A stretch of DNA of 64,000 nt, from positions 54,295 to 118,294 of the forward strand of contig JBMFQZ010000009.1 of NCBI GenBank assembly GCA_049968335.1, given 5' to 3'. This document shows positions 23,943 to 60,152 of this stretch, one piece after another (position 1 is the stretch's first letter; each line of letters starts with the position of its first letter). The stretch comes from Verrucomicrobiia bacterium (GTDB lineage: Bacteria > Verrucomicrobiota > Verrucomicrobiia > Limisphaerales > JAKPVM01). Below the pieces are notes generated by a model. The model saw only the letters and a program-made list of their open reading frames with translations. It had not been told where the DNA came from and made no database searches. The position numbers were made by a program, and so were the translations under genes.

Positions 23943-26900
23943 TTATTTTATTAATTTTTCAGTCTCATCAATCTGTTTTATATCCGGAGCCTGCCAGATT
24001 TTAATATTTTGACGCGAGCCGCTGCCAACAAAGCAACCGACTACGAGCGTTGTACCATCGGGAGAGAATAAAAGCGTCCCCACATCGTCTTTAAAATCGT
24101 CAATAGTCATCAATTCCTGAAAATTAACAAGGCTCCAGAATTTTACCGAATCATCTGTGCTTCCGGTAACTAATGTTCGGGAGTCTGGAGTGACGGCAAT
24201 TGATGTAATTGCTTCTTTATGTCCGGATAACGAGGCGAGTTTAACGCCGTTGAGCGGGTTCCAGACTATTGCCGCGCCATCCATACCGGCGCTTATCAGC
24301 ATATTTGAATTGGGTGAAAATGTCATCGCCCAGATTGTCCATTTATGACCTGAGAGGGTAAACTTTTCTGCTCCGGACATAATTTCCCATAGTTTTACGT
24401 TGTAATTTGTGTCGGTGCCGACAACGAATTTTTCATCCGGGGAAATAGATAGAGGTCCGGTAAATCCTGATTTTTCAAAAACAAGTTTTAAACTGTTAAA
24501 ATCCCACAATTTAATTTCATCTGCTGTTGCGGTTGCTAAAAAGCGATTATCATCGGATACCGCAAGCCAGACTACAGGCTCGGTGTGCGCCGCGAATTCT
24601 TTTACAACTTTCCCGTTATTTTCAATTGCCATTATTTCAACCGTTCCGGAACGTCTGCCGACCAGACAGAATTTGAGGTCTTTTGATACTGCGAGCGCTG
24701 TTCGCTCGTAATCGCTGTAGGCAGGCATCGGGTTTGAGATTTTAGTTCGCGAAGATAAATTCCATAATTGAAACTGGCGGTCAAAACCCAGGGCAAGCAA
24801 TTTTGAACTGTCTCTGGAAAATGCCAGAGGAACCATTCCGTTTGTGAGCGTGTTATCTGTTGTTCGTGTAGAAGCAAGCCATATTTTTGCGGTAGAATCT
24901 TTGCCCCCGGAAGCAATCCAGTTTCCATCTTTTGAAAAACAGACAGACCAGACTTCATTATGATGACCATACAATGTTGCAAGCTGCGCGCAGGTTGGTA
25001 TTTCCCAGATTTTAATCGTCTGGTCAACCCCTGCTGTTACAAGCATTTTAGAGTCGTATGAAAAATTCAACGCCGCGACAGTGCTTTGATGCGCGGTCCA
25101 GGATGAAATTTCTGAACCGGTTGTGGCGTCCCACAACCTCACTGTGCCGCGCCATTCTGCTACCGCAACATACCTGCCGTTAGGCGAGACAGCCATCGCG
25201 GTCGGGTTTTCTAACTGGCAGATAAACGGATTTGAAATAGTTTTTCCAGAGATATCCCAGAGCTGAAGGTATTGTGTCTGTTCTTCTCCCTTGGAAATTA
25301 AATATATTTTTCCATCAGGCGAGACCGCCCTGAATATCCCGATATCCGCGAATTGAGCTTCGGGAAAATCGCGCGGCTCCCAGGTTATTGTTTCAAAGAA
25401 GAGTGTCCCTATTACAAACGATTTAGCCGCGACTGTTTGATTGTCTGGTAAAAAAAACAGCGGCAGGTTTGCCCGTTGCAATTGAGCGATTTGAGTCCAT
25501 TTTTTCGAATCAAAAATGTAGATGCTCAACGCGGTTTGAAAAATGAGCATCGTTCCGTCGTTAGAGAAAAACAGGGTGCCGCGAGCGGGCGGACTATCAA
25601 GTTCGCCGAGTTTTGCTATCAATTTTTTGGTTTTGATATCCCAGACATATACAAACGGGTCTCGTTGAGCGGTTAACAACTTTTTGCCATCCGGAGAGAT
25701 TAGAACCGCTTCCACAAAATCATTTTGTTGAAAAGAGAATATCTCCTGACCGCGTGTCAGGTTCCATAAATAACGCCATTCAAAGCCGCGCAGATCAACC
25801 TGATTTTTTGCGGGAATATGTTTTTTTAAAAGTTCGTATGCCCTGCCGCGATTGTTTTCCGCGAGCGCTCTTTGCGCAAGGTTGATATCGGCGACATACA
25901 GGTTCTGGAGCGATTCAAGAGCCGATTTTTCAGCCCTGGTTGCCTGTTTTGCCGCGTCAATAGCCTTTTGTTCCGCCAGTTGTTTTGCGGCTATCGCCTC
26001 GCGCCATTGCCATAAAACGCCTCCGACTCCGAATGCCGCCACAATTATAAGAAGCAAAATGAGTGTTGCTATTGCTGGCTTTCGTTTAGCCCATTTTTTA
26101 AATTTTTGAATTCGCGAAACCGGACGCGCAAGTATTGGCTCGCCGTTTAACCACCGTTCAAGTTCAAGCGCAAGTTCTCCCGCAGAGCCATACCTGTGTT
26201 CAGGCTGTTTCTCAAGACATTTTAGACAGATAGTCTCCAGTTCCGGGTCGACTTTCGGATTTATTTCTGAGGGCTTTCGCGGCTCGGTGTCTATAACCTG
26301 TTTTATTGTTTCTACAAAATTTCTCCCTGCAAAAGGGGGTCTGCCTGTGAGCATCTCATATAGTATTGCGCCAAGACTATATACATCTGAAGCCACCGAT
26401 ATTGCCGCGCTCTTTCCGAGCGCTTGTTCCGGCGACATATAACTTGCGCTTCCGAGAACCGCCTGACTCTGCGTAAACGTCTCTTGCTGTTCAAGCAACT
26501 TTGCAAGTCCAAAATCGGTCAATAGCGGTTCGCCGTTTTTGTCTATCAACACATTTGTCGGTTTCAAATCGCGGTGAAGAATCCCGTGCTGGTGGGCATA
26601 ATGAATTGCGCGAACGATAGCCAGCAATATTTTTGCGGCTTTTTTACCCTCCATTGGTTGTTTATTGATAAGCGCCGAGAGATTTTGCCCATCTATGTAG
26701 CGCATTGAATAGAAATAAATCCCCTCCTGTTCGCCAATTTCATAGATAGGGACAATGTTCGGATGGTCAAGTCTTGCGGCGGCAGCCGCTTCGGTTTTAA
26801 ACCGTTGCACTTCACCTGCTGACGCCAGCTGGCCGGACTTGATCATCTTTAAAGCGACTGTGCGATTTAGACTTTTTTGAATCGCCTTATAAACAATCCC

Positions 26901-27128
26901 CATTCCCCCCTCGGCAACCGGTTCTATGATTTCGTAGTCGCTAAAACTTTTAGTAGATTCAGCGCCTTTATCTGCGCGGTTTTGCCCTGTCGGTTTGTCT
27001 TCTCCGCTGGTCGAAATGATTTCTAACCCCTGTTTTAACAAACAAGCGGGACACAGCCCGTCAGGAACATCAGACTGCAACGTGGCGCCGCATACAGGGC
27101 ATTTTTTTACAGAATCCATACAGGACAA
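23943..27128 (-). CDS. Ser/Thr protein kinase with N-terminal zinc ribbon, one TM helix and a large WD40 beta-propeller region
   Basis: CPVCGATL...CPACLL; kinase motifs GGMGIVYKA, HRDLKPTNVL, DFGLAK, SPEQ; TM ATLILLLIIVAAFGVGGVLW; many WD-like units (e.g. TIKIWEI, TAKIW, VKLWEI, VKFWSL). Confidence 0.9.
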   Translation of the reverse strand: MSCMDSVKKCPVCGATLQSDVPDGLCPACLLKQGLEIISTSGEDKPTGQNRADKGAESTKSFSDYEIIEPVAEGGMGIVYKAIQKSLNRTVALKMIKSGQLASAGEVQRFKTEAAAAARLDHPNIVPIYEIGEQEGIYFYSMRYIDGQNLSALINKQPMEGKKAAKILLAIVRAIHYAHQHGILHRDLKPTNVLIDKNGEPLLTDFGLAKLLEQQETFTQSQAVLGSASYMSPEQALGKSAAISVASDVYSLGAILYEMLTGRPPFAGRNFVETIKQVIDTEPRKPSEINPKVDPELETICLKCLEKQPEHRYGSAGELALELERWLNGEPILARPVSRIQKFKKWAKRKPAIATLILLLIIVAAFGVGGVLWQWREAIAAKQLAEQKAIDAAKQATRAEKSALESLQNLYVADINLAQRALAENNRGRAYELLKKHIPAKNQVDLRGFEWRYLWNLTRGQEIFSFQQNDFVEAVLISPDGKKLLTAQRDPFVYVWDIKTKKLIAKLGELDSPPARGTLFFSNDGTMLIFQTALSIYIFDSKKWTQIAQLQRANLPLFFLPDNQTVAAKSFVIGTLFFETITWEPRDFPEAQFADIGIFRAVSPDGKIYLISKGEEQTQYLQLWDISGKTISNPFICQLENPTAMAVSPNGRYVAVAEWRGTVRLWDATTGSEISSWTAHQSTVAALNFSYDSKMLVTAGVDQTIKIWEIPTCAQLATLYGHHNEVWSVCFSKDGNWIASGGKDSTAKIWLASTRTTDNTLTNGMVPLAFSRDSSKLLALGFDRQFQLWNLSSRTKISNPMPAYSDYERTALAVSKDLKFCLVGRRSGTVEIMAIENNGKVVKEFAAHTEPVVWLAVSDDNRFLATATADEIKLWDFNSLKLVFEKSGFTGPLSISPDEKFVVGTDTNYNVKLWEIMSGAEKFTLSGHKWTIWAMTFSPNSNMLISAGMDGAAIVWNPLNGVKLASLSGHKEAITSIAVTPDSRTLVTGSTDDSVKFWSLVNFQELMTIDDFKDDVGTLLFSPDGTTLVVGCFVGSGSRQNIKIWQAPDIKQIDETEKLIK

Positions 27129-34337: not shown

Positions 34338-34411
34338 TTTAAACAACTTTCACAACTCTAACTCATAATTTATATTAATTCAAACGCTCAATCAAAATTT
34401 TCTATTAATTT

Positions 34412-34600
34412 TCACAATTTCATTACTATTTTAGGGCGTTCGCCTTTTTTAACACTATAAGTGATAGAACCTCTTCGCGCAGACGAAACCTCGCAACATT
34501 CAGGAACAAATCCGCGTTTTCGTTTCTTAATAAATTTAACCGCAAGCAGTATTGCCGCCAACGCCACAATAGTTAAAGCAGTTATTTCTTGCCAGTCCAT
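34412..34600 (-). CDS. small single-TM protein with basic and Cys motif (possibly FeoB-associated Cys-rich membrane protein-like)
   Basis: 62 aa: MDWQEITALTIVALAAILLAVKFIKKRKRGFVPECC.... A TM helix followed by a polybasic stretch and Cys resembles that small-protein family. The assignment is weak. Confidence 0.35.
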   Translation of the reverse strand: MDWQEITALTIVALAAILLAVKFIKKRKRGFVPECCEVSSARRGSITYSVKKGERPKIVMKL

Positions 34601-34909
34601 TTTTAAAACAAATTGCTAAAGTATAAAATAATTGCCTTTTGCAATTTCGCAAATGATTTTGCAATAATATAATACATTCCATAGCCGCTGTCATTATCTG
34701 ATTAAATAAAAACTAAAAGGAGATCAGAAATCTTTTAAACATTCGGTCTGTTCGTCAGATATATGAATTAAGCAAAAAAGGCAAAAAATGTAAATAGAAT
34801 GACAAATTATGTTAGGACTATTTAAAGATAAGAATAAATTATGTAGTAGATAGAAAAGAATAAGAAAAAATTAATAATTAAAATAAGAACCACTAATTCC
34901 ACAATGTTT

Positions 34910-35683
34910 ATGAATGCTTATGTGTTAATAAAAATGGCGCCCGACCCTGTGGAAGAATTAAATGTGTCTGACAATGGAAAAGCGCTTGATTCAGAGTTTC
35001 TCAGATTCAAATGCGGCGACCCGGAGGAACATTCTTTAGAGCAGGCTTTATTATTAAAAGAAAGATATGGAGGCAAGGTTACGGTTATTGGACTCGACGC
35101 GCCTGAGATTGACGATGTTTTTTATACCGCTCTAGCAAAAGGGGCTGATAGCGCTGTAAAAATAGCGCTTGACCAGACAAAACTTGGTTCCATAGCCACG
35201 GCGACTGTTTTAGCCTCGTATTTTAAAGAGAAGGTTCAAATTACCGAAGATACTCTGATTATGCCTGGCACTCAATCTATAGACGATATTGAGGGGGAGG
35301 TTGGCGCAATGCTCTCGGAGTTGCTCGGTTTGCCTTACATTGGCGTCGTGAGCGGGTTAAATCTTGAAGGTAGCAAGGCGATTGTCATCAAAGAGTTTCG
35401 CAGCGGCATTCGCGGCGAATACGAGGTTCAACTTCCTGCGGTGCTGGGGATTCAATCGGCAGAAAAACCGCCTCGCTATGTGCCTGTGGCAAAGGTGCGG
35501 GCGGTGATGAAATCGGCAAAGATTGATGTGGTTGATCTGCCGGAGCCTGAAAAGGCGATGGCGCTTGAAATAGAGAGATTGTACAAACCTGAGGTTGCGG
35601 GCAGGGCGCAAATAATAGAAGGCGACGCGCAGGCAGTTGCGGGAAAACTGGCAGATATTTTTGCCGAACGTGGAATTATCTGA
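34910..35683 (+). CDS. etfB: electron transfer flavoprotein beta subunit
   Basis: MNAYVLIKMAPDP... matches the EtfB N-terminal pattern (M..LV.IK.VPD); length is about 257 aa and etfA follows directly. Confidence 0.9.
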   Translation: MNAYVLIKMAPDPVEELNVSDNGKALDSEFLRFKCGDPEEHSLEQALLLKERYGGKVTVIGLDAPEIDDVFYTALAKGADSAVKIALDQTKLGSIATATVLASYFKEKVQITEDTLIMPGTQSIDDIEGEVGAMLSELLGLPYIGVVSGLNLEGSKAIVIKEFRSGIRGEYEVQLPAVLGIQSAEKPPRYVPVAKVRAVMKSAKIDVVDLPEPEKAMALEIERLYKPEVAGRAQIIEGDAQAVAGKLADIFAERGII

Positions 35684-35706
35684 GCTGGAAAAACCATCTA
35701 AAAGTT

Positions 35707-36690
35707 ATGAGCGACCGCGTAAACATAATAGTTTTAATTGAACACCTCAAAGGTTCAATTCCCGAGATATCCTACGAGATGCTCGGAGCAGCAAGAAAGA
35801 TTGCGGATTTATCCGACGGAAAGGTCTATGCCTTTATAGGTGGGAGAGGTGCGAAGGAACTTGCCGCTGGACTTGGCGCCGCGGATACAGCGCTTGTGAT
35901 GGATGATCCGGCGATAGAAAGACTTACCGATGATGTGATTATTGAGGCGCTGCATAAGGCTGCTTTGGAGAAACAAGCGTCGCTGCTGTTTATCGGTTGT
36001 TCAAATATCTCTTTTGGCATCGGAGCAAGGCTTGCCGCGCGAGCCGGGATTCCGTATGTCAACTGGGTAAAAGAGATTAAGCCGCTTGACGGCGGGTTTG
36101 TGTTAACAAGCGCAATGTTTGGCGGAAAGATATTGAGCGATATTTTATTAAAGCAAGGCAAGGGCGTTCTTGGAATTCTATCAGGTTCGTTTCCGCCTGA
36201 TGCTGGCAAGATACAGAGAGAGCCGCTTATAGAAGAGGTAGCAAAACCCGATGTGAAGTCAAAGATCGCGTTTCGTTCATTGATTGAACCAAAAGCCGGA
36301 GATATTGACATAACGCGGATGGATGTGCTCGTTTCGGTTGGAAGAGGAATTCAAACCCCGGACAATATACCGCTTGCCGAAGAACTCGCAAACGCCCTTG
36401 GCGGCGCCGTAAGCGCTTCGCGTCCAGTGGTCGATCAAGGCTGGCTGCCGCTGACTCGACAGGTCGGCAAATCCGGTATGAGTGTTGCCCCAAGACTCTA
36501 TCTTGCTCTTGGAATAAGCGGCGCCCCTGAACATTACGAAGGAATGAAAGGGTCAAAACTTATCGTTGCAATTAATACCGACCCGAAAGCGCCGATTTTT
36601 GATTTCGCCCATTATGGAGCGGTTGTGGATTGCCTTGAACTAATTGAGCCGTTAAAAGAAGAAATCTTAAAACGCAAAGGCGCTAAATAA
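35707..36690 (+). CDS. etfA: electron transfer flavoprotein alpha subunit
   Basis: 327 aa with the C-terminal FAD-binding block VSASRPVVDQGWLPLTRQVGKSGMSVAPRLYLALGISGAPEHYEGMKGSKLIVAINTDPKAPIF, canonical for EtfA. Confidence 0.92.
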   Translation: MSDRVNIIVLIEHLKGSIPEISYEMLGAARKIADLSDGKVYAFIGGRGAKELAAGLGAADTALVMDDPAIERLTDDVIIEALHKAALEKQASLLFIGCSNISFGIGARLAARAGIPYVNWVKEIKPLDGGFVLTSAMFGGKILSDILLKQGKGVLGILSGSFPPDAGKIQREPLIEEVAKPDVKSKIAFRSLIEPKAGDIDITRMDVLVSVGRGIQTPDNIPLAEELANALGGAVSASRPVVDQGWLPLTRQVGKSGMSVAPRLYLALGISGAPEHYEGMKGSKLIVAINTDPKAPIFDFAHYGAVVDCLELIEPLKEEILKRKGAK

Positions 36691-36808
36691 GTTTTTTAAA
36701 ACAATCAGAGAGTGGCGGTTAAATTATTGCGCGGCTAACAAAGTGGTAAGTCGCGCCTGCATTTAGATAAACCCAGGATTTCATTTATGTGAGTTAACTA
36801 TGTGATTT

Positions 36809-38911
36809 ATGACCCCGATAAGACCATTATTTTACAATATTCATACTAATTATAAGTGGGCAGAACCGCTTGCTTATATATTAGGAGCGATTGCCGCATT
36901 CATTTGCATCTACGGAATATATTCTCATATAAGAAAATGGAAGACAGGCAGGGGAGAAGATTTCCCGGTGTTTTCACCACAACGGCTGAAGTCGTTCATA
37001 AAATTTGCGCTGATGCAGGGACGGCTTGTTTGCGACAAATATGCCCTGTTAATGCATCTTGCCATATTCTCTGGAATGGTTGTTCTGTTTTTAGGGACTG
37101 CTCTTGCGACAATTGATCAGGATGTTGCTCATCTATTGTTTGGCAATCAGATTTTAAAAGGGAGTTTTTATTTAAGTTATAAATTGTTTCTTGATTGGTT
37201 TGGCGCTCTATTAATTATTGGTCTTTTACTGGCGTTCATCAGGCGGTATCTACTAAAACTAGATAGATTAAAAAACCTTGTTTATCCGACCTTCCCCTTA
37301 GATTCATTTTATCTGCTTGGGATACTGCTTTTTATAGCAGCAAGCGGATTTTTTGTTGAAGCAATTCGTTTAGCAGCCACAAAACCGCCCTGGGCGGTTT
37401 ACTCTCCGGTCGGGAATTTAATTTCTGGATTATTTACGAGCCTTGATTCAAAAACTCTTTCTTCGCTCCATTTCTGCATCTGGTCATTGCACGGAGTGGC
37501 AGCCCTGACTTTTATTGCTTTAATACCTTATTCAAAGGCGTTTCACCTCTTTTCCTCTGCGGCAAATATTTATTTAAGGAATCTTAAACCTGTTGGGGCG
37601 CTGGTTGTAACTAATCCGGAGGGAGTGAGCAGACTTACAGATTTTACGTGGAGACAATTGCTGCAATTTGACGCCTGCACCTGGTGCGGAAGATGTCAGG
37701 AGATTTGCCCGGCGTATATTAGCGGCTCAAAGTTATCTCCAAAAAATGTTATAATGAAACTTGGATCGCAGTTGAGGGTTTTTAAACCGCAGAAAGAGCG
37801 TAAAAATGGAAACCAATCTAACAATCCATCCGCCATAGCGACTGATAATAAAGTTGATAGTTCTTCTCGGTTGGAGGTTAAGCCATTGCAGGAGACAGTT
37901 TTTGAGCCGTCAGAACTCTGGGCTTGCGCGACTTGCAGGGCGTGCGAAGAGGTCTGTCCGGTCTTCATTGAACAACCAAAGGCAATAATAGATATGCGTC
38001 GCTATCTTGTCGGTCAGGGGATAATGGATAAAACAGTTCAAGACGCGCTCAATAGCCTCAACAGGTATGGCAACTCATTCGCAAAATCAGACCGTATGCG
38101 AGCGAAATGGACGCAGGGGTTGACGGTAAAGATTAAGGACGCAAGAAAAGAGCCGGTTGAATGTCTCTGGTTTTTAGGTGATTACGCCAGTTTTGATCCG
38201 CGACTCACCGCTATAACACAGTTAAACGCAAAAATACTTTCAAATTGCGGCGTTGATTTTGGAATCCTTTACGAAGGGGAACGCAATTCCGGCAACGACG
38301 TTCGCAGAATCGGCGAAGAGGGTTTGTTTGAACTGTTAAGAGATAAGAACCTTGAAGCGTTTTCAAAAGTTCAATGGAAGAATGGAAGCAGATTAATAAT
38401 AACTACAGACCCGCACTCTTATAACACTTTAAAAAATGAATATGAATTAAGTACTAATGGCGAGAATGTCGTGGTTAAACATTACACGGAATTTTTCTTT
38501 GAGCTAATAAAAAGCGGGAAGTTGACTTTTAAGAAAAAACTCAACGGCAAGGTTACCTACCACGACCCCTGTTATTTAGGACGCTACAACGGGATTTATG
38601 AAGAACCGCGTCAAGTGATAACGGCGCTTGGGCTTGAACTTGTAGAGATGCCGAGAAACCGTTCGCGCAGTCATTGTTGCGGAGCCGGCGGCGGACGGAT
38701 GTGGATGGAAGACACCGATGAAATAAAAGAAAGACCTGCCGAAAATCGCGTCAAAGAGGCGGCTTCGCTAAATGATGTTGGGACAATTGTCGTAGCCTGT
38801 CCTAAAGACCTTGCAATGTTCAAAGACGCAGTCAAGACGACAGGCAACGAGGGACGACTTGTTGTTAAAGATATTGCCGAGCTGGTTGCTGAAGCAATGG
38901 AAATTCAGTGA
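36809..38911 (+). CDS. membrane-anchored Fe-S oxidoreductase: N-terminal multi-helix membrane domain fused to an HdrD-like module (2x[4Fe-4S] plus two CCG domains); candidate Etf:quinone oxidoreductase
   Basis: 700 aa with about 6 N-terminal TM helices, CTWCGRCQEICP and CATCRACEEVCP ferredoxin motifs, and CCG-type cysteine motifs (YHDPCYLGRYNG, CCGAGGG). It lies immediately downstream of etfBA. Confidence 0.8.
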   Translation: MTPIRPLFYNIHTNYKWAEPLAYILGAIAAFICIYGIYSHIRKWKTGRGEDFPVFSPQRLKSFIKFALMQGRLVCDKYALLMHLAIFSGMVVLFLGTALATIDQDVAHLLFGNQILKGSFYLSYKLFLDWFGALLIIGLLLAFIRRYLLKLDRLKNLVYPTFPLDSFYLLGILLFIAASGFFVEAIRLAATKPPWAVYSPVGNLISGLFTSLDSKTLSSLHFCIWSLHGVAALTFIALIPYSKAFHLFSSAANIYLRNLKPVGALVVTNPEGVSRLTDFTWRQLLQFDACTWCGRCQEICPAYISGSKLSPKNVIMKLGSQLRVFKPQKERKNGNQSNNPSAIATDNKVDSSSRLEVKPLQETVFEPSELWACATCRACEEVCPVFIEQPKAIIDMRRYLVGQGIMDKTVQDALNSLNRYGNSFAKSDRMRAKWTQGLTVKIKDARKEPVECLWFLGDYASFDPRLTAITQLNAKILSNCGVDFGILYEGERNSGNDVRRIGEEGLFELLRDKNLEAFSKVQWKNGSRLIITTDPHSYNTLKNEYELSTNGENVVVKHYTEFFFELIKSGKLTFKKKLNGKVTYHDPCYLGRYNGIYEEPRQVITALGLELVEMPRNRSRSHCCGAGGGRMWMEDTDEIKERPAENRVKEAASLNDVGTIVVACPKDLAMFKDAVKTTGNEGRLVVKDIAELVAEAMEIQ

Positions 38912-38990
38912 CGTAGATAACTCGCCACGAGCGGTGATTATTTTAATTTGAAGCACTTATTAAAACAAAATTTTCGAAAGGCATAAAATT

Positions 38991-40214
38991 ATGACAACGA
39001 GCGCAATAACAATAGAACATCCGGAACTGACTGTATGCAGGTTAGGAACAAACCTTGATAACCTGCTTGAACAACCGGAGGGACAACGGCTGTTGACCTG
39101 CATCCAGTGCGGGACCTGTTCAGGGACCTGCCCTTACGGGGAGTTTATGCAATATCCGCCACGTAAGATAATCGCAATGTTGCGGCGTGGACTTATTGAT
39201 GAGGTGTTGCAGAGCGACAGTATGTTAAAATGCGTTGCGTGTTATTCTTGTATGATAAAATGTCCGCGCGGGATACGGCTCTCAGACGTTTTGCTGCCGC
39301 TGGTTAAAGAGCAGACTTTAATTCGCGCCACAGAAATGCCTGCTGAATTGCAACGTTCGCTTCAGAATACTTTAAGATATGGCAATCCGATGGGCGAAAG
39401 TTCACGCAAACGCGCCGCGTGGGTTGCTACTTCAAAATATCCTGTGCCAATAATGTCCGAAATCAGGCGGCCTGTGGATGTTCTCTGGTTTGTTGAGTGC
39501 TACACATCTTATTATGCCAGGGGGCAAGATAACAGCCGCGCGGTGGCGAAAATCTTCAACAAACTCGGAATTGATTTTGCCATTCTGGGGAACGAGGAGA
39601 AATGCGCCGGCGACTGCGGTCAACTCACATGGGAGTCGGGTCTTTTTGAAACCCTTACAGACTATAATATGGTCATTTTCAGGAAATACGATTTCAACCG
39701 CATAGTAACTGGCGACCCTCATGCGTTCAACGCCTTTAGGGTGCGTTATCCAATGTATGGATTTAACTACGAGGTCTGGCACACAACGCCGTTCATCGCG
39801 CAATATCTGAATAAATTAAAACCGCTCCTTAAAAAACCGCTCAATATTACAGTTACATACCACGATTCTTGCTGTGTGGGACGGCGAGCTGGATTTTACG
39901 AAGAAGGTCGGGCGCTGCTCAAAGCAATTCCAGGGGTAAAACTTGTTGAAATGGTCCACAACCATATGAACTCCATCTGCTGTGGCGGCGGTGGCGGCGG
40001 CATGTGGTTAGATACTTATTTCAAACAGAAGGGAATGGAGCGATTGTCGGAAAGGAGAATAAAAGAAGCGATTGCGACCGGCGCGGATGTCCTTGCGGTT
40101 TCATGTCCGTATGAGATTTACCGATTTGAAGACGCGTTAAAGACGGTTCCGCACGAAAAACCGATGATTGTCCGCGATGTTGTGGAACTTCTGGCTGAAT
40201 CTATGGAAGACTGA
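38991..40214 (+). CDS. soluble HdrD-like (fused HdrC/HdrB-type) heterodisulfide-reductase-related Fe-S protein
   Basis: 407 aa with CIQCGTCSGTCP and CVACYSCMIKCP, then CCG motifs (KCAGDCG, YHDSCCVGRRAG, CCGGGGGG). I saw no TM segment. Confidence 0.8.
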   Translation: MTTSAITIEHPELTVCRLGTNLDNLLEQPEGQRLLTCIQCGTCSGTCPYGEFMQYPPRKIIAMLRRGLIDEVLQSDSMLKCVACYSCMIKCPRGIRLSDVLLPLVKEQTLIRATEMPAELQRSLQNTLRYGNPMGESSRKRAAWVATSKYPVPIMSEIRRPVDVLWFVECYTSYYARGQDNSRAVAKIFNKLGIDFAILGNEEKCAGDCGQLTWESGLFETLTDYNMVIFRKYDFNRIVTGDPHAFNAFRVRYPMYGFNYEVWHTTPFIAQYLNKLKPLLKKPLNITVTYHDSCCVGRRAGFYEEGRALLKAIPGVKLVEMVHNHMNSICCGGGGGGMWLDTYFKQKGMERLSERRIKEAIATGADVLAVSCPYEIYRFEDALKTVPHEKPMIVRDVVELLAESMED

Positions 40215-40244
40215 TTTAAACAATTAACCGGAGGGTTTGAAGTT

Positions 40245-42248
40245 ATGATGACACCAAAAAAATATGATCCGATACGCATAGGTTACTACATCTGCCATTG
40301 CGGCACAAATATCGCCGGGGTCATTGATGTTGATGCTGTCGCAAAATACATTGCAAAACTGCCAAATGTGGTTATCTCGCGTACTTATAAATATATGTGT
40401 TCTGACCCGGGGCAAAAACTGATTCAGGACGATATTAAGGAGAATAATTTAAACCGCATTGTAGTAGCCGCGTGTTCGCCTCTTTTGCATGAAGCAACAT
40501 TCAGAAACGCTGTTAAAAAAACCGGGTTAAATCCGTATTACTTCCAGATGGTCAATGTGCGCGAACACGACGCATGGGTGCATCAGGATAAAGTGGAAGC
40601 AACGCGAAAGGCAATGGCGCTTTCTCGAGCGGCAATAGAAAGGGTTCCTATTCATAAGCCTCTGGACATCAAAAAAATTCCTATTAATCCCGCAGTCCTT
40701 ATTGTCGGCGGCGGCATAGCCGGCATTCATAGCGCCCTTGTTCTTGCCAATGCGGGCAAACATGTTTATCTGGTTGAACGGGAGCCGACGATCGGCGGGC
40801 ATATGGCGAAATTTGATAAAACCTTCCCAACCCTTGATTGCGCGGCTTGTGTTCTGACTCCAAAGATGGCGGCTGTCGGCAAGCATCCAAATATTACCCT
40901 CTGGACATACTCGGATGTTATTAAAGTAGATGGTTACGTGGGGAATTACAAAGTTACTGTTCGAAGGCGTCCAAGGTATGTAATAGAAGACCTTTGCACT
41001 GGATGTCTGGAGTGCATAGACGCCTGCGTTTATAAAGAGCCAAAATTCCCGGATGAATTTAATTTAGGTCTCGGCAAACGAAAACCTGTTTATTTGCCAT
41101 TCGCTCAAGCAATCCCGTCTGTGGCCACAATAGACCCGAACACTTGCATTGAATTAAAGACTGGCAAATGCAAGAAAACCTGCGTAGAAGCCTGCGGAGA
41201 TAGAAAAGCCATTGATTTTAAACAACAGGAAGTAATTAAAGAAATCACTGTTGGAACAATAATAATTGCGACTGGATTCAAGACCTTTGACCCAAGGAAG
41301 ATTCTCTATTACGGCTACGGTGTATATCCAAACGTAATCACCTCGCTTGAAGCGGAGCGGTTGTTGAACGCGGCAGGTCCCACGGGAGGCGAATTCCTTA
41401 CAAAAGAAGGCCGCAAACCGGTGCGTGTAGCCATTATCCACTGTGTTGGTTCTCGCGATGAAAATACAAACCGTTGGTGTTCGCGCGTATGCTGTCTATA
41501 TTCCTTAAAACTTGCTCATCTCATCCATGAAAGAACCGGCGCGGAGGTTTACAACTTTTACATTGATATTCGAACGCCCGGCAAGAGTATGGAAGAATTC
41601 TACACGCGCGTTGCCGAAGAAGGGATAAACTTTGTCCGTGGCAAAGTCGCCGATATTTATCCTGATCCATCGGACGGTTCAACAGGCAAGTTAGTTGTTC
41701 AGGCAGAAGACACTCTGCTCGGCAGGATTTTAAAAGTGCCTGTGGATATGGTTGTGCTTTCCGTCGGTCTTGAGCCCGACCCGGAAGCAGAAAATATTAG
41801 AAAGATGTTCAATTTAAGTTGTAGCGCGGAAGGTTGGCTTCTCGAAAGGCATCCAAAACTTGCTCCAGTTAGTTCGTTCAACGATGGCATCTTCATCGCT
41901 GGCTGTTGCCAGGGACCAAAAGATATCCCCGACACCGTTGCGCAAGCAGGCGCTGCTGCAGCTGAAGCGTTCAGTCTAATTGACCTTGGAAATATTGAAA
42001 TGGAACCAAACACGGCATACATAATAGAATCCGAATGTTCGGGCTGCAAATCCTGCATCTCTCTCTGTCCGTATTCGGCAATCTCGTTTGACACTGTTAA
42101 GAAGAAATCCGTTATAAATGAAGCCTTATGCAAAGGGTGCGGAACTTGTGTTGCTTCTTGCCCTTCTGGCTCAATTGTGCAAAACTTATTTGAAGATAGC
42201 GAAATTATTAGCGAAATTAATGGACTTTTGGAACCATTACAGATATAA
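40245..42248 (+). CDS. hdrA: HdrA-like FAD- and Fe-S-containing heterodisulfide reductase subunit A
   Basis: 667 aa with N-terminal YYICHCGTNIAG, FAD fold VGGGIAGIHSAL, internal cysteine clusters, and C-terminal CSGCKSCISLCP...CKGCGTCVASCP. Confidence 0.9.
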   Translation: MMTPKKYDPIRIGYYICHCGTNIAGVIDVDAVAKYIAKLPNVVISRTYKYMCSDPGQKLIQDDIKENNLNRIVVAACSPLLHEATFRNAVKKTGLNPYYFQMVNVREHDAWVHQDKVEATRKAMALSRAAIERVPIHKPLDIKKIPINPAVLIVGGGIAGIHSALVLANAGKHVYLVEREPTIGGHMAKFDKTFPTLDCAACVLTPKMAAVGKHPNITLWTYSDVIKVDGYVGNYKVTVRRRPRYVIEDLCTGCLECIDACVYKEPKFPDEFNLGLGKRKPVYLPFAQAIPSVATIDPNTCIELKTGKCKKTCVEACGDRKAIDFKQQEVIKEITVGTIIIATGFKTFDPRKILYYGYGVYPNVITSLEAERLLNAAGPTGGEFLTKEGRKPVRVAIIHCVGSRDENTNRWCSRVCCLYSLKLAHLIHERTGAEVYNFYIDIRTPGKSMEEFYTRVAEEGINFVRGKVADIYPDPSDGSTGKLVVQAEDTLLGRILKVPVDMVVLSVGLEPDPEAENIRKMFNLSCSAEGWLLERHPKLAPVSSFNDGIFIAGCCQGPKDIPDTVAQAGAAAAEAFSLIDLGNIEMEPNTAYIIESECSGCKSCISLCPYSAISFDTVKKKSVINEALCKGCGTCVASCPSGSIVQNLFEDSEIISEINGLLEPLQI

Positions 42249-42274
42249 TCGGTATTTATTTAATAAGGATTACC

Positions 42275-42799
42275 ATGGCAAACGAAGTTAAAAATGATAG
42301 CAATAACGGAAATTGGTCGCCGCGAATAGTGGCGTTTTTCTGCAATTGGTGCACCTACACGGCGGCAGACCTCGCGGGAGTTTCCCGTATGAAATACGCT
42401 CCAAACATACGGGTGATTCGCCTGATGTGTTCTGGACGCGTTGATCCGCAGTTCATTCTTGAAGCGCTGGCTCGGGGCGCTGACGGCGTTTTAATTGGCG
42501 GCTGTCACCCCGGCGATTGCCATTACTCAGAAGGCAATTATAAATGCCTGCGCAGGTTCAAGATGTTAAAGCGGATGTTAAACGATATGGGGATTGAAGA
42601 CAAGAGGGTGCGGCTGGAATGGATCAGCGCCGCCGAGGGCGAAAAAGTAAAGCGGGTCGTGAATGAAATGGTTGCGGAAATTCAAGAATTAGGACCGCTC
42701 GGCATTCCCAAGAAGTTTGAGGAGTGGGATAGAGAAATAGAACATTTAAAGCAACATATTGAAACACAGGAATTTAAACAGGAAACAGTTAAACAATAG
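42275..42799 (+). CDS. mvhD: MvhD-like (methyl-viologen-reducing hydrogenase delta subunit) protein
   Basis: VAFFCNWCTYTAADLAG...IRLMCSGRVDP...GADGVLIGGCHPGDCHY is the canonical MvhD/FlpD pattern. Confidence 0.9.
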   Translation: MANEVKNDSNNGNWSPRIVAFFCNWCTYTAADLAGVSRMKYAPNIRVIRLMCSGRVDPQFILEALARGADGVLIGGCHPGDCHYSEGNYKCLRRFKMLKRMLNDMGIEDKRVRLEWISAAEGEKVKRVVNEMVAEIQELGPLGIPKKFEEWDREIEHLKQHIETQEFKQETVKQ

Positions 42800-42819
42800 T
42801 TTTTTGAAAGGGCTTTATT

Positions 42820-43803
42820 ATGGCGAAACCTAAAATTGCGATTTACTGGTGCGCTTCTTGCGGCGGATGCGAGGAAGCGGTTGTTGACCTTGCGGAGGAC
42901 ATACTCGGAGTAGTAGAAAAACTGGATATTGTTCTCTGGCCTGTGGCGATGGATTTTAAAAGAAAAGATATTGAGGCAATGCCGGATAAATCCATAGTCG
43001 CCACTCTGCTTAATGGCGCTATCCGAACCTCGGAACAGGAAGAGATGGCGCATCTATTGCGGCGAAAAAGCGTTTATATGATCGCCTACGGCGCCTGTTC
43101 TCATCTTGGGGGCATCCCCGGTCTGGCAAATCAGTTTTCAAAAGAGCAGATTCTCAAGTTTGTCTATGAAGACGCTCCGACGGATGTTAATCCAGAAAAA
43201 ACGCGTCCTCTGCCGCACTCAAAGGTTAACGGACACGATCTTGAACTCCCTGTCTTTAGAAATGTGGTCAGAACTCTGGACCAGGTTGTGGATGTGGATT
43301 ATTACATCCCGGGATGTCCTCCAACACCTCAAATTACAAAAAACGCGATTGCCACTCTTTTAGATGGTAGACTGCCGGCAAAAGGAAGCGTTCTTGCGCC
43401 GGATGTCGCACTTTGCGATGAATGCCCGCGCAAAGAGACAAAGCCGCCAGAGTTCAGTTTCAAAGAATTCTATCGTCCACATCAAAAACCAATTGACCCT
43501 GAACAATGTCTCCTTGCGCAAGGACTTGTATGTCTGGGTCCTGCTACCCGCGCTGGTTGTGGGGCACTTTGCCCCAGAGGTAATATGCCTTGCACAGGAT
43601 GTTTTGGTCCCACTTCCCGCGTAAAAGACCAAGGCGCAAAGATGCTATCTTCCATTTGCGCAAATGTTGAGCCTAAGACCGATGAGGAAATTGACAAGGT
43701 ACTCGCGGGAATACCTGACCCGGTCGGAACATTTTATCGTTACGGTCTTGCGAAGAGCATTCTCCGAAGGAGAATTGACCTGCCGTTCAATGACGGAAAG
43801 TAA
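42820..43803 (+). CDS. mvhG: [NiFe] hydrogenase small subunit, MvhG-like (group 3)
   Basis: KIAIYWCASCGGCEEAVVDL N-terminus, YIPGCPP proximal-cluster motif, further Cys clusters, and no Tat signal, consistent with a cytoplasmic enzyme. Confidence 0.85.
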   Translation: MAKPKIAIYWCASCGGCEEAVVDLAEDILGVVEKLDIVLWPVAMDFKRKDIEAMPDKSIVATLLNGAIRTSEQEEMAHLLRRKSVYMIAYGACSHLGGIPGLANQFSKEQILKFVYEDAPTDVNPEKTRPLPHSKVNGHDLELPVFRNVVRTLDQVVDVDYYIPGCPPTPQITKNAIATLLDGRLPAKGSVLAPDVALCDECPRKETKPPEFSFKEFYRPHQKPIDPEQCLLAQGLVCLGPATRAGCGALCPRGNMPCTGCFGPTSRVKDQGAKMLSSICANVEPKTDEEIDKVLAGIPDPVGTFYRYGLAKSILRRRIDLPFNDGK

Positions 43804-43846
43804 CCTTTAAACCAGAACCAGAAACCTTTAAAAAGATAGATTTATT

Positions 43847-45376
43847 ATGGATAAAGCAGTAGAGCAAGTTTGGAATCAGGCAAATCAACAGGCAAACGCC
43901 AATTACATTCAATCAAGACGTCGCGCGGTTGTTGATCCGATAACCCGTCTTGAAGGTCACGGCAAGATTGACATCTTTTTGAACGACAGGGGCGATGTGG
44001 AGCGCGCTTATCTCCAGATACCTGAGTTGCGCGGATTTGAGGTCTTTTCCATAGGTCGCCCGGCGGAAGATATGCCGCAGATTACAAGCCGTATCTGCGG
44101 TGTTTGCCCAACCGCTCATCATATGGCGGCAACAAAGGCGTTGGATGACCTTTATAAAGTCCAGCCGACACCAACGGCGCGAAAACTTCGGGAACTGGTG
44201 TATAACGCCTTTATGTTTGAAGACCACACGCTCCATGTTTACATCCTTGGCGGACCGGACTTTATCGTTGGACCTGAAGCGCCTGCCGCTGAACGCAATG
44301 TCGTTGGAGTAATTAATAAGGTTGGTCTTGAAGTTGGCAAAAAGGTCATCGGGATTCGCAGACGAGTGCGTCAAATGATGACTGAACTCGCCGGTAAAGT
44401 TATTCATCCGGTATTCGGATTGCCCGGCGGCGTGGCAAAAGCAATGGACCCGGCAAAATTGCCAGAATATAAAGAGATTGCGAAAGACGCCCTTGATTTT
44501 GCCTTATTCACGCTTCAGGTGTTCAAGGATATAGTGCTAAAAAATCAGGACTATGTAAAACTAATCACATCCGATGCCTTTACTCACAAGACCTATTATA
44601 TGGGGCTTGTTGATGAGAAGAACAGGGTCAATTTTTATGACGGTCAGTTGCGAGTTGTAACTCCAGATGGAAAAGAATACGCCAAATTCCCGGTTCAGAA
44701 ATATCGCGACTTTGTTGCTGAACACACAGAACCGTGGAGTTACATCAAATTCTGTTATCTAAAACCGGTTGGTTGGAAAGGGTTTGAAGAAGGAGAACAG
44801 AGCGGCGTTTATGCAGTGGCTCCGCTCGCGCGGCTTAACGCGGCTGATGGAATGGCGACGCCGCAGGCGCAAAAAGCCTACGAAGAATTCTTCAACACGC
44901 TTGGCGGAAAACCGGTTCATCACACACTTGCCACACACTACGCGCGTGTGGTTGAGATCATTCAGGCGGCGGAGACAATGGTTCAACTTCTTAACGACCC
45001 AGAAATTACAGGCAAGGATATTCGCAATATTCCAACAGAAAAACCGACCGTTGGCGTTGGTGTTGTTGAAGCTCCGCGCGGAACATTGTTCCATCATTAT
45101 GAAACCGATGAACAGGGGCTTATCAAGATGGCGAACCTGATTGTTGCTACGCAGAACAATGCCGCTCGCATTGCAATGAGCGTGGATAGAGCCGCTAAGG
45201 GGCTTATTAAAAACGGCGTTGTTAGCGAGGGGTTGTTGAATAAAATTGAAATGGCGTTCCGCGCTTACGACCCGTGTTTTGGTTGCGCCACGCACTCATT
45301 GCCAGGAAGCACGCCGCTCGTGGTGAATATTTACAATGATAAAAATCAGTTGGTTAATCAGTTAATTCAGGGTTAA
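43847..45376 (+). CDS. mvhA: [NiFe] hydrogenase large subunit, MvhA-like (group 3c-like)
   Basis: ITRLEGHGKI, N-terminal Ni-binding RICGVCPTAHH, and C-terminal DPCFGCATH followed by a 26-aa extension. Confidence 0.9.
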   Translation: MDKAVEQVWNQANQQANANYIQSRRRAVVDPITRLEGHGKIDIFLNDRGDVERAYLQIPELRGFEVFSIGRPAEDMPQITSRICGVCPTAHHMAATKALDDLYKVQPTPTARKLRELVYNAFMFEDHTLHVYILGGPDFIVGPEAPAAERNVVGVINKVGLEVGKKVIGIRRRVRQMMTELAGKVIHPVFGLPGGVAKAMDPAKLPEYKEIAKDALDFALFTLQVFKDIVLKNQDYVKLITSDAFTHKTYYMGLVDEKNRVNFYDGQLRVVTPDGKEYAKFPVQKYRDFVAEHTEPWSYIKFCYLKPVGWKGFEEGEQSGVYAVAPLARLNAADGMATPQAQKAYEEFFNTLGGKPVHHTLATHYARVVEIIQAAETMVQLLNDPEITGKDIRNIPTEKPTVGVGVVEAPRGTLFHHYETDEQGLIKMANLIVATQNNAARIAMSVDRAAKGLIKNGVVSEGLLNKIEMAFRAYDPCFGCATHSLPGSTPLVVNIYNDKNQLVNQLIQG

Positions 45377-45401: not shown

Positions 45402-45440
45402 AGACCCGAATCCGAGCGCAGGATTCGGGTCTTTATTTAT
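45402..45440 (+). terminator. rho-independent terminator after the hydrogenase operon
   Basis: 12-bp perfect stem agacccgaatcc / ggattcgggtct with a 7-nt loop gagcgca, followed by ttatttat; 26 nt after the mvhA stop. Confidence 0.8.
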
Positions 45441-45516
45441 ATATTGAAGCATATAGAATTATTACAAAGAAAGATGATGATTTTGTTTAGATCAACGCGC
45501 AAAATAGGATAAACAG

Positions 45517-60013: not shown

Positions 60014-60152
60014 CACAGGCATTCCTGCCTGTGGCACATTCGTCCTCGCCTGCACAGCAATCCCTACCTGCTGCTTCAGCGGTTTCACTTTCGCAGACGG
60101 AAAAGAGACAGACAGGAATGTCTGTGCTACCAACGCAGACAGGAATGTCTGC
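60014..60152. repeat. three short tetraloop hairpin repeats (repeat family 3)
   Basis: cacaggca-ttcc-tgcctgtg (60014-60033), acagaca-ggaa-tgtctgt (60108-60125) and gcagaca-ggaa-tgtctgc (60135-60152). The first is the inverse orientation of the other two. Confidence 0.7.

Follow-up and report, generated by a model that had tools for sequence, protein, structure and literature searches.

Eight consecutive plus-strand genes lie within a 64,000-nucleotide stretch of DNA from a Verrucomicrobiia bacterium (assembly GCA_049968335.1, contig JBMFQZ010000009.1, positions 54,295 to 118,294), referred to here in its full length as the window. They encode the two subunits of an electron-transfer flavoprotein (Etf; EtfB and EtfA), a membrane-bound and a soluble protein resembling the heterodisulfide reductase (Hdr) subunit HdrD, the iron-sulfur flavoprotein HdrA, and the [NiFe] hydrogenase proteins MvhD, MvhG and MvhA. 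The labels memD and solD for the membrane-bound and soluble HdrD-like proteins were coined in this analysis. Five of the genes (etfB, etfA, memD, solD and hdrA) form an obligately co-inherited core, and the Mvh hydrogenase is its usual neighbor. The identity of the individual parts is close to certain, and the eight genes probably form one functional system. Our tentative reading of this system is a previously uncharacterized class of flavin-based electron-bifurcating systems in which an Mvh-type hydrogenase would oxidize H2 and menaquinone reduction would pay for that of ferredoxin. Etf would shuttle between two modules that resemble the Etf:menaquinone oxidoreductases of the EMO/EtfD family: a soluble module attached to a dedicated paralog of HdrA, and a second one located in the membrane.

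Conservation of the gene set

A solD alignment was used to survey the GTDB species, each represented by a single genome. Relatives of solD turned up in the genomes of at least 581 species; 80 loci were retained for analysis, with identities of 64-95% across phyla. By record title, 33 of these loci belong to Verrucomicrobiota and 31 to Acidobacteriota, with the remainder distributed over Gemmatimonadota, Bacteroidota, Eisenbacteria, Ignavibacteriota, Zixibacteria and others. The taxon labels are those of the submitters of the metagenome-assembled genomes (MAGs), and a few (e.g. 'Thermoplasmatota' and 'Paceibacterota') probably reflect mis-binning. In public databases the solD family carries generic names only, such as '(Fe-S)-binding protein'.

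To count synteny, the eight proteins of the window were located in those loci whose flanking sequence was long enough. Every testable locus (43/43) has EtfB, EtfA and memD together with solD, and HdrA is present in 36 of 37. All eight genes are found in 19 of 32 testable loci, and in a further 8 the sequence breaks off directly behind MvhD or MvhG. The gene order in Verrucomicrobiota, the window included, is etfB-etfA-memD-solD-hdrA-mvhDGA, and that of Acidobacteriota and Gemmatimonadota is solD-etfB-etfA-memD-hdrA-(hdrC-hdrB-hdrA2)-mvhDGA. Across phyla the order is rearranged with the set intact, as solD shifts from downstream of memD to upstream of etfB. Dozens of species genomes, drawn from several phyla, have the set in synteny between unrelated flanks, and its grouping therefore lies far beyond chance. 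The first-pass annotation of the window had called the combination unusual; it is in fact the standard arrangement of many Verrucomicrobiota, and Acidobacteriota and other phyla have it as well. Conserved synteny strongly backs the further proposal made there, of a coupled system joining H2, a ferredoxin-level carrier, Etf and the quinone pool, and the adjacency is clearly conserved in related genomes rather than unique to this one.

The closest genomes are the Verrucomicrobiia MAGs GCA_049968735.1 and GCA_049969835.1, in which solD is 95% identical and which both have the flanks of the window. Relatives of MvhA number in the thousands at 75-87% identity, many of them labelled Verrucomicrobiota. 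The closest (loci L006 and L007) repeat the eight-gene order between different flanks, another (L001) has the same genes in another order, and distant ones (L003-L005) lie in canonical HdrC-HdrB-HdrA-MvhD-MvhG-MvhA clusters that have no Etf.

HdrA of the window aligns end to end (residues 9-662) with methanogen HdrA 8rvu_a. It is full length with its FAD (flavin adenine dinucleotide) domain, and all cluster-ligand cysteines of the N-terminal, inserted and C-terminal ferredoxin domains are conserved. A neighbor-joining tree, built without bootstrap or other support values, splits HdrA into two paralog clades. One contains all 13 canonical copies that adjoin HdrBC and MvhD, and the other contains every copy linked to Etf and solD, including that of the window. 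Where a locus also has a canonical HdrCB-HdrA set, the canonical HdrA is a second copy beside the Etf-linked one. Alignment revealed no cofactor-level difference between the clades, as all cysteine ligands are common to both; an odd Cx7Cx3Cx3C spacing occurs in bacterial HdrA generally. The clades are told apart by no more than six signature residues. Five of the six cluster between residues 455 and 497 (R455, D470, Y472, P473 and K497; window 41607-41735), and this patch may be a partner-docking surface.

Rates of divergence were compared in the 22 loci that have all eight proteins. Median identity to the window is 71% for solD and 71-75% for HdrA, MvhD, MvhG and MvhA, and it falls to 60% for EtfB, 53% for EtfA and 45% for memD. 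Slow change in the former group and faster change in the latter would fit a stable complex of Mvh, HdrA and solD to which Etf and memD are more loosely attached. The same difference in rate also speaks for two independent modules sharing an operon, with EtfAB-memD as an ordinary Etf:quinone route for catabolic dehydrogenases and solD-HdrA-MvhDGA as a separate bifurcating hydrogenase of Hdr/Mvh-like type, whose high-potential acceptor would be other than Etf. Each half is indeed found by itself: EtfAB occurs with an EMO/HdrF-like protein alone elsewhere, as in hdrF3-etfAB of D. autotrophicum, for which mvhADG with hdrA was described separately (PMC2702500); L008 has a second set of this kind; and the canonical clusters of L003-L005 do without Etf. 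We nevertheless consider such independence improbable. EtfBA and memD stay with solD in all 43 loci despite rearrangement across phyla, the HdrA paralog is specific to the Etf/solD set, and solD, whose closest relatives are Etf-docking domains, does not have the catalytic site intact that a soluble substrate would need.

Several loci vary in ways that concern the core or the hydrogenase. In L008 (3392-8501) and L082 (11205-20498), GltD/NfnB-like, NuoF-like and NuoG-like (Bfu-type) modules come after solD and before MvhD-MvhG-MvhA; these modules stand instead of, or in addition to, HdrA, and L082 also contains [FeFe]-hydrogenase-like fragments. Their arrangement suggests that the Etf/solD core can plug into other bifurcating front ends. 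A histidine kinase gene and two response-regulator genes lie inside the hydrogenase cluster of L001 (4818-8444) and L002 (3569-7195). In L001, an 83%-identical relative, they are placed between mvhG and hdrC-hdrB-mvhA, which hints at dedicated two-component regulation. A RES-Xre toxin-antitoxin pair separates mvhG from mvhA in the canonical HdrCBA-MvhDGA cluster of L004 (8942-9897). In the Verrucomicrobiota locus L015 (13306-15139), the five-gene core, with no Mvh nearby, is followed directly by the riboflavin genes ribBA and ribH, an adjacency that may be relevant to a flavin-rich complex.

Cofactor sites of the encoded proteins

The labels given to the eight genes in the first-pass annotation all hold in comparisons with Pfam, NCBIfam and PDB. 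For the hydrogenase, group-3c large subunits are defined by the motifs ICGxCxxxH (L1) and AYDPCxxCATH (L2) (PMC6085437), and MvhA of the window fits both (RICGVCPTAHH and AYDPCFGCATH). Its best NCBIfam score is 384 bits to VhuA, compared with 171 bits or less to HysA, ShyA, FrhA and HydA. MvhA is not an ortholog-level VhuA match, because this score lies below the equivalog cut-off of 800. Its top structural match is 7t2r_D (A. mobile HydL, 364 bits), followed by 5odc_F (MvhA, 351 bits) and Hox of group 3d (308 bits). MvhG separates these systems further, with 223 bits to 5odc_E, 77 to HydS, the small subunit of the A. mobile NiFe-HydABCSL enzyme, and 64 to Hox; its NCBIfam match is VhuG. MvhD matches both FlpD and 5odc_D. 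Large-subunit motifs, VhuA-type similarity and adjoining MvhG-type and MvhD genes are all present, and the hydrogenase is accepted here as Mvh/group-3c type, as had been predicted, with its placement made by motifs and similarity scores.

Bifurcating (group-2) Etf proteins are recognized by RxGV and GxxSPTxV in the small subunit and RPxFGG in the large one, of which the arginine is essential (PMC10734219). We aligned the window proteins and about 74 orthologs jointly with bifurcating and non-bifurcating references. In the window and these orthologs EtfB is without RxGV and SPTxV, and the essential arginine of EtfA is replaced. The corresponding window sequences are LDSEFLRF and AMALEIE in the small subunit and TSAMFGG in the large one. 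The motifs for the electron-transferring FAD of EtfA (GKSG and GISGAPEH) are conserved in the same alignment. Since the group-2 motifs are lacking and those for this FAD are kept, Etf is a non-bifurcating carrier with one FAD. EtfB has the non-bifurcating M. methylotrophus ETF (1o94_C) as its best solved relative, and EtfA has no ferredoxin domain by Pfam.

These observations bear directly on a scheme in which Etf itself bifurcates in the manner of FixABCX/EtfABCX, taking electrons from NADH to ferredoxin and, via memD, to quinone. Such a scheme would share its overall logic with EtfABCX, where quinone is the high-potential and ferredoxin the low-potential acceptor (PMC10734219). It is nonetheless extremely unlikely given the three missing motifs, the non-bifurcating relative of EtfB and the domain content of EtfA, and Fix-like bifurcation at Etf was rejected on the absence of the group-2 motifs. 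Because Etf is not of the bifurcating type, any bifurcation must sit at HdrA. We propose HdrA as that site, where it would probably carry out the same flavin-based bifurcation as methanogen HdrA.

Members of the EMO/EtfD family combine a NarI-like cytochrome b with five transmembrane helices and a histidine triad, two cubane clusters and an HdrB-related non-cubane domain. In that domain access to the substrate site is blocked by a histidine, and the role of the clusters is limited to passing on electrons from Etf (PMC13083937; bioRxiv 10.64898/2026.08.18.745454). Cryo-electron microscopy of the S. aciditrophicus enzyme (SaEMO) with ETF shows the flavoprotein docked through EtfB on the non-cubane domain and delivering electrons there (bioRxiv 10.64898/2026.08.18.745454). 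The heme-ligating triads are H87/H233/H251 in SaEMO and H78/H223/H241 in M. smegmatis EtfD (MsEtfD), and the proximal-cluster histidines are H534 and H583, respectively. In HdrB, Cys81 and Cys234 are the bridging, catalytically displaced cysteines (PMC13083937; bioRxiv 10.64898/2026.08.18.745454).

The first-pass annotation had recognized a membrane iron-sulfur oxidoreductase beside EtfAB. This protein, memD, is assigned to the Etf:quinone oxidoreductases of the EMO/EtfD type by its membrane signature and by its best solved relative, MsEtfD (9ojn_A). Five hydrophobic segments can be recognized in memD, whose cytochrome b domain is NarI-like and which has a single non-cubane cluster site besides two cubane ones. 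Invariant in 57 orthologs are H83, H228 and H246, the last two with the same 18-residue spacing as H233/H251 of SaEMO, together with R145/R146 and the cysteines of two [4Fe-4S] sites (C290/293/296/300 and C373/376/379/383), which align with C412-C422 of MsEtfD. The cubane cysteines of solD (C37/40/43/47 and C81/84/87/91) are likewise invariant and mark two HdrC-like [4Fe-4S] sites. The N-terminal domain of solD is 41% identical to bacterial HdrC (87 bits) and scores 64 bits to 5odc_C, and the ferredoxin domain of memD scores only 29 bits to bacterial HdrC. The presence of the HdrC-like domain on solD, and not on memD, is compatible with solD as the subunit that would dock on HdrA. The remainder of solD is 37% identical to memD. 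By sequence, the best PDB match of solD is 9ojn_A (149 bits). A fold search with its AlphaFold2 model (pLDDT, predicted local distance difference test, 76; pTM, predicted template modelling score, 0.79) returned 9OJN first (E 4.5e-17, TMq 0.73), with HdrB chains at about 1e-7 to 1e-6.

Non-cubane ligands were compared in an alignment of HdrB 9sfi_C, canonical bacterial HdrB (L001 and L003-5), a fragment of MsEtfD, and the memD and solD orthologs. The canonical HdrB proteins, 9sfi_C among them, keep all ten ligand cysteines. In memD every ligand position of the distal cluster is substituted (C9D, C41N, C42S, C78D and C81S/T, in HdrB numbering). In solD, C9 and C41 are kept, with C42A, C78D (Cys in Acidobacteriota) and C81A. 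At the proximal site both proteins keep four of the five cysteines (C153, C193, C194 and C231) and the histidine, and the fifth is Asp in memD (C234D) or Glu in solD (C234E). The EMO-type histidine, one residue before the Cys81 position, is invariant in both. Because bridging Cys81 and Cys234 are replaced, memD and solD are without a heterodisulfide-reductase active site; the loss of both cysteines together with the presence of the EMO/EtfD-type histidine argues for roles as electron-transfer modules rather than in disulfide chemistry. By its sequence, memD is an EMO/EtfD family member that is missing one defining feature, the distal cluster.

The disulfide or other HdrD-type substrate supposed in the first-pass annotation is unlikely for the same reasons. 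Its strongest form would make solD a genuine reductase of a disulfide or small molecule, with a remodelled site in which His, Glu or Asp and extra cysteines (CAGDC and SCC) take the place of the bridging pair. CCG-domain proteins are functionally diverse, and solD does keep 3-4 distal-site cysteines as well as extra invariant ones (C209 and the doublet C294/C295) that are not seen in EtfD. Against these features stand the replacement of both HdrB bridging cysteines (by Ala and Glu) in all sampled orthologs and the invariant histidine, which is the one that occludes the substrate site in SaEMO and MsEtfD. Moreover, among the surveyed loci the cluster has no conserved gene for a thiol cofactor or a carrier protein. 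We regard a reductase function of solD as very unlikely.

Proposed electron path and direction of operation

In the path that we propose, which is a variant of the methanogen MvhAGD-HdrABC scheme, MvhA and MvhG would oxidize H2, and MvhD would hand the electrons to the FAD of HdrA, where they would be bifurcated. The low-potential electron would leave through the ferredoxin domains of HdrA to ferredoxin. The high-potential electron would pass to solD, docked on HdrA by its HdrC-like cubane domain, with its EMO-like non-cubane domain acting as a wire only. It would then move from solD to the single FAD of the non-bifurcating EtfAB, and from there through memD, an EMO/EtfD-type cytochrome b and iron-sulfur protein, to menaquinone (MK). 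Etf is placed between the two paralogous modules because the non-cubane domain is its docking site in the SaEMO:ETF structure, and because the cluster encodes exactly two such domains, one in the HdrA-type partner and one in the quinone reductase. The net reaction would be 2 H2 + Fd(ox) + MK -> Fd(red) + MKH2 + 2 H+ (Fd, ferredoxin), in principle reversible at very low H2. The analysis shows the gene identities, ligand patterns, conserved synteny, HdrA paralogy and rate classes; from sequence and gene context we infer that the proteins are physically coupled, in what order the carriers act, that ferredoxin is the low-potential partner and which way the system runs. For this specific path in the uptake direction, with quinone replacing the heterodisulfide of methanogens, we consider the case to be evenly balanced.

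Published potentials are -414 mV for H2, -140 mV for heterodisulfide, -74 mV for MK and -450 to -500 mV for ferredoxin (PMC8880783; PMC10734219). By these values, MK is at least as suitable as heterodisulfide as a high-potential acceptor for H2-driven reduction of ferredoxin.

The same wiring could also run in reverse as a confurcating, H2-evolving hydrogenase, with reduced Etf and reduced ferredoxin combined at HdrA to reduce protons. Etf would be charged by an Etf-linked dehydrogenase or by menaquinol via memD, and ferredoxin by, for example, pyruvate:ferredoxin oxidoreductase; in this role a fermenting glycan degrader would dispose of mid-potential electrons as H2. The sulfatase, GH76 and sugar transporter genes of the window make the organism look like a fermentative or facultative degrader of polysaccharides, EMO works together with H2 or formate production in syntrophs, and flavin-based bifurcation is reversible in principle, with the same synteny and ligand evidence applying in either direction. 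The energetics are less favorable: calculated from the potentials above, formation of H2 from MKH2 and ferredoxin requires H2 at roughly 1-10 Pa or lower. No Etf-partner dehydrogenase (acyl-CoA, lactate etc.) or ferredoxin gene is conserved beside the cluster across the loci or present there in the window, and the characterized group-3c enzyme complex in the literature examined runs in the uptake direction. Confurcation as the physiological role is ecologically plausible but appears unlikely, though less so than the other alternatives considered here. The first-pass annotation had likewise allowed for operation either way.

Certain observations weigh against the proposed H2-to-menaquinone path. 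Gene clustering speaks for co-inheritance and probable co-expression and is not a physical electron path, and the direction of operation is not readable from sequence. The hydrogenase is not an obligatory partner, because five of the 32 loci (L015, L023, L062, L070 and L086) carry the five-gene core with no Mvh within 10 kb, and in L008 and L082 the NuoF/NuoG-like modules intervene. Docking of Etf on memD is an extrapolation, because memD has lost the distal cluster that both characterized EMO proteins keep in some form. The distal site of solD is partial and non-standard (C170 and C205 plus the extra invariant C209), and it could bind a different cluster or a substrate. Within the 64-kb window there are no ferredoxin, menaquinone-synthesis or hydrogenase-maturation (hyp/hycI) genes, and the top 120 homologs of solD are all MAG or metagenome proteins, with no cultured or named carrier among them.

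Operon, surroundings and relation to known systems

The coordinates of the features are collected in Table 1. For the genes they match exactly, in the list of open reading frames (ORFs), the eight plus-strand genes at 34904-45376 of the first-pass annotation. The intergenic gaps in 5' to 3' order are 23, 118, 79, 30, 26, 20 and 43 nucleotides; of the range of 23-118 nucleotides given previously, the upper bound stands and the lower is corrected to 20. The strong terminator noted at the operon end is borne out by folding statistics. The hairpin at 45402-45432, which is followed by UUUAUUUAU, has 7 G-C pairs in its stem. Its folding energy is -22.3 kcal/mol (z = -6.2), a value that none of 200 shuffled sequences reached. 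In the same comparison with shuffles, the internal gaps of the eight-gene run have no significant structure. This combination is compatible with a single transcription unit, but is not proof of one.

Table 1. Features of the eight-gene operon and its boundaries in the window
Feature	Positions	Strand	Length (amino acids)	Basis or remark
Presumed operon promoter region	34347..34903	.		AT-rich, upstream of etfB, divergently shared with a small minus-strand ORF and hsp20
EtfB, small (beta) subunit of non-bifurcating electron-transfer flavoprotein	34904..35683	+	259	Pfam ETF; 1o94_C
EtfA, large (alpha) subunit carrying the electron-transfer FAD	35707..36690	+	327	Pfam ETF and ETF_alpha; PDB matches
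memD, membrane EMO/EtfD-like Etf:menaquinone oxidoreductase	36809..38911	+	700	9ojn_A, 228 bits
solD, soluble HdrC-like ferredoxin domain fused to EMO/EtfD-like non-cubane-cluster domain	38991..40214	+	407	HdrC and 9ojn_A matches
HdrA, FAD and multi-[4Fe-4S] flavoprotein of the Etf-associated paralog clade	40245..42248	+	667	8rvu_a, 724 bits
MvhD, [2Fe-2S] connector between hydrogenase and HdrA	42275..42799	+	174	Pfam FlpD, 190 bits; 5odc_D, 178 bits
MvhG, [NiFe] hydrogenase small subunit	42820..43803	+	327	NCBIfam VhuG, 213 bits; 5odc_E, 223 bits
MvhA, large catalytic subunit of group-3c-type [NiFe] hydrogenase	43847..45376	+	509	NCBIfam VhuA, 384 bits; L1/L2 motifs
Intrinsic terminator closing the operon	45402..45442	+		12-bp stem, U-rich tail

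Upstream of etfB there are sigma-70-like hexamers on the plus strand (e.g. 34646-34673, a putative promoter). Alignment of this region with relatives was too patchy to support a conserved regulatory motif. A short imperfect palindrome, TTTGC-N6-GCAAA, lies in the divergent promoter zone at 34637-34654 and may be due to chance. Between hsp20 and etfB, a minus-strand ORF of 62 amino acids (34412-34600) has a hydrophobic N-terminus and a cysteine pair; in the closest MAGs this position is occupied by an equally long ORF, weakly labelled as FeoB-associated.

The flanks consist of unrelated housekeeping genes: those upstream, on the minus strand, encode Lon and Hsp20, and those downstream encode PriA, a nucleoside phosphorylase, KsgA and PanC. 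HdrBC and acyl-CoA dehydrogenase genes are absent from the window. Its remainder is in the style of the Planctomycetes-Verrucomicrobia-Chlamydiae (PVC) group and includes the sulfatase and GH76 genes, a Ser/Thr-kinase-WD40 protein, BatD and a prepilin-type N-methyl protein, as well as the sugar transporter. The kinase gene (23943-27128, minus strand) encodes a 1061-amino-acid Ser/Thr protein kinase fused to multiple WD40 beta-propellers, and its neighbors encode the sulfatase and a protein of the histone deacetylase family; genes of this kind are typical of the PVC group. The tail of the window at 60031-63239 is low in GC (0.32-0.36, compared with about 0.44 elsewhere) and encodes an Eco57I-like restriction-modification methylase (620 amino acids) followed by a SIR2-like domain protein (449 amino acids). 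This is probably a horizontally acquired defence island.

The system described here resembles several characterized ones, each in part, with its front end like Mvh-Hdr and its back end like EMO/EtfD with EtfAB. With MvhAGD-HdrABC of methanogens (5ODC, 8RVU) it has in common the group-3c-type MvhA and MvhG, MvhD, a full-length HdrA and an HdrC-like two-cubane domain. The window differs by the absence of HdrB, by the fusion of the HdrC-like domain to an EMO-like non-cubane one that has neither of the catalytic cysteines Cys81 and Cys234, by the additional EtfAB and membrane quinone reductase, and by an HdrA from a separate paralog clade; no coenzyme M or coenzyme B metabolism is expected in the carrier bacteria. 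Because the HdrB feature is lacking, the system falls outside the strict HdrABC heterodisulfide reductases. HdrDE of cytochrome-containing methanogens similarly joins an HdrC and HdrB fusion (HdrD) with a cytochrome b of five transmembrane helices (bioRxiv 10.64898/2026.08.18.745454), but it reduces heterodisulfide with electrons from methanophenazine and keeps the catalytic cysteines, whereas the membrane protein of the window is a single chain without them.

To the EMO/EtfD systems of S. aciditrophicus and M. smegmatis (9OJN) the likeness extends to the five-helix NarI-like domain with its histidine triad, the two cubanes, the His-ligated proximal cluster and the non-bifurcating EtfAB encoded beside memD. 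Unlike these proteins, memD has no ligand for the distal cluster ([4Fe-5S] in SaEMO, linear [3Fe-4S] in MsEtfD) and has Asp for the fifth proximal Cys; the window genes are linked to hydrogenase and HdrA, not to beta-oxidation, and include solD as a second, soluble paralog. EtfABCX/FixABCX likewise pays for ferredoxin reduction with quinone reduction and has Etf in the path (PMC10734219), but there the bifurcating flavin is in Etf, NADH is the donor and the quinone reductase, EtfCX of the ETF-QO type, is unrelated, whereas in the window Etf is without bifurcating motifs, H2 would be the donor and HdrA is the likely site of bifurcation. FlxABCD-HdrABC and NiFe-HydABCSL are examples in bacteria of bifurcation of the HdrA/MvhD type or linked to a hydrogenase, and the NuoF/NuoG-like modules of L008 and L082 resemble those of HydABCSL. 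The window itself has no NuoE/F/G-like or Flx subunits, and its small subunit is MvhG-type.

The literature in which we searched was full text, with most subscription journals outside it, and in it we found no description of the eight-gene system; the only mention was in a preprint on Chloroflexi. There, group-3c NiFe hydrogenase genes are preceded by Hdr genes and 'in some cases' by an ETF complex with 'ETF-QO', and bifurcation is suggested (bioRxiv 10.1101/2021.08.23.457424). This is a passing genomic note on another phylum, and the main text of the preprint has no ligand analysis, distribution survey or electron-path model. The association has thus been glimpsed before, but neither analyzed nor tested. 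New as far as we have seen are how widely and how strictly the synteny holds, the recognition of a core of five genes with an HdrA paralog of its own, and the findings that both CCG proteins have lost the catalytic cysteines and that the Etf is of a non-bifurcating type.

Among bacteria lacking coenzymes M and B, hydrogenases of the Mvh type with HdrA are common, and what serves them as high-potential acceptor is generally unknown. The gene cluster described here offers a concrete and testable candidate in Etf and the menaquinone pool. As the eight-gene set recurs in hundreds of uncultured bacteria of soil and sediment, it is probably an uncharacterized way of linking H2 to ferredoxin and the quinone pool, and its carriers belong to environmentally abundant, mostly uncultured lineages. 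If the proposed path is correct, it would identify the counterpart, in bacterial Mvh/HdrA systems, of the heterodisulfide of methanogens, and would provide a new route to low-potential ferredoxin from H2, or to the venting of electrons as H2. Non-cubane iron-sulfur modules of the EMO/EtfD type would gain a role beyond beta-oxidation. Hydrogen metabolism would be tied directly to the respiratory chain of these heterotrophs, and H2 cycling in metagenomes of soil, peat and sediment would be read differently.

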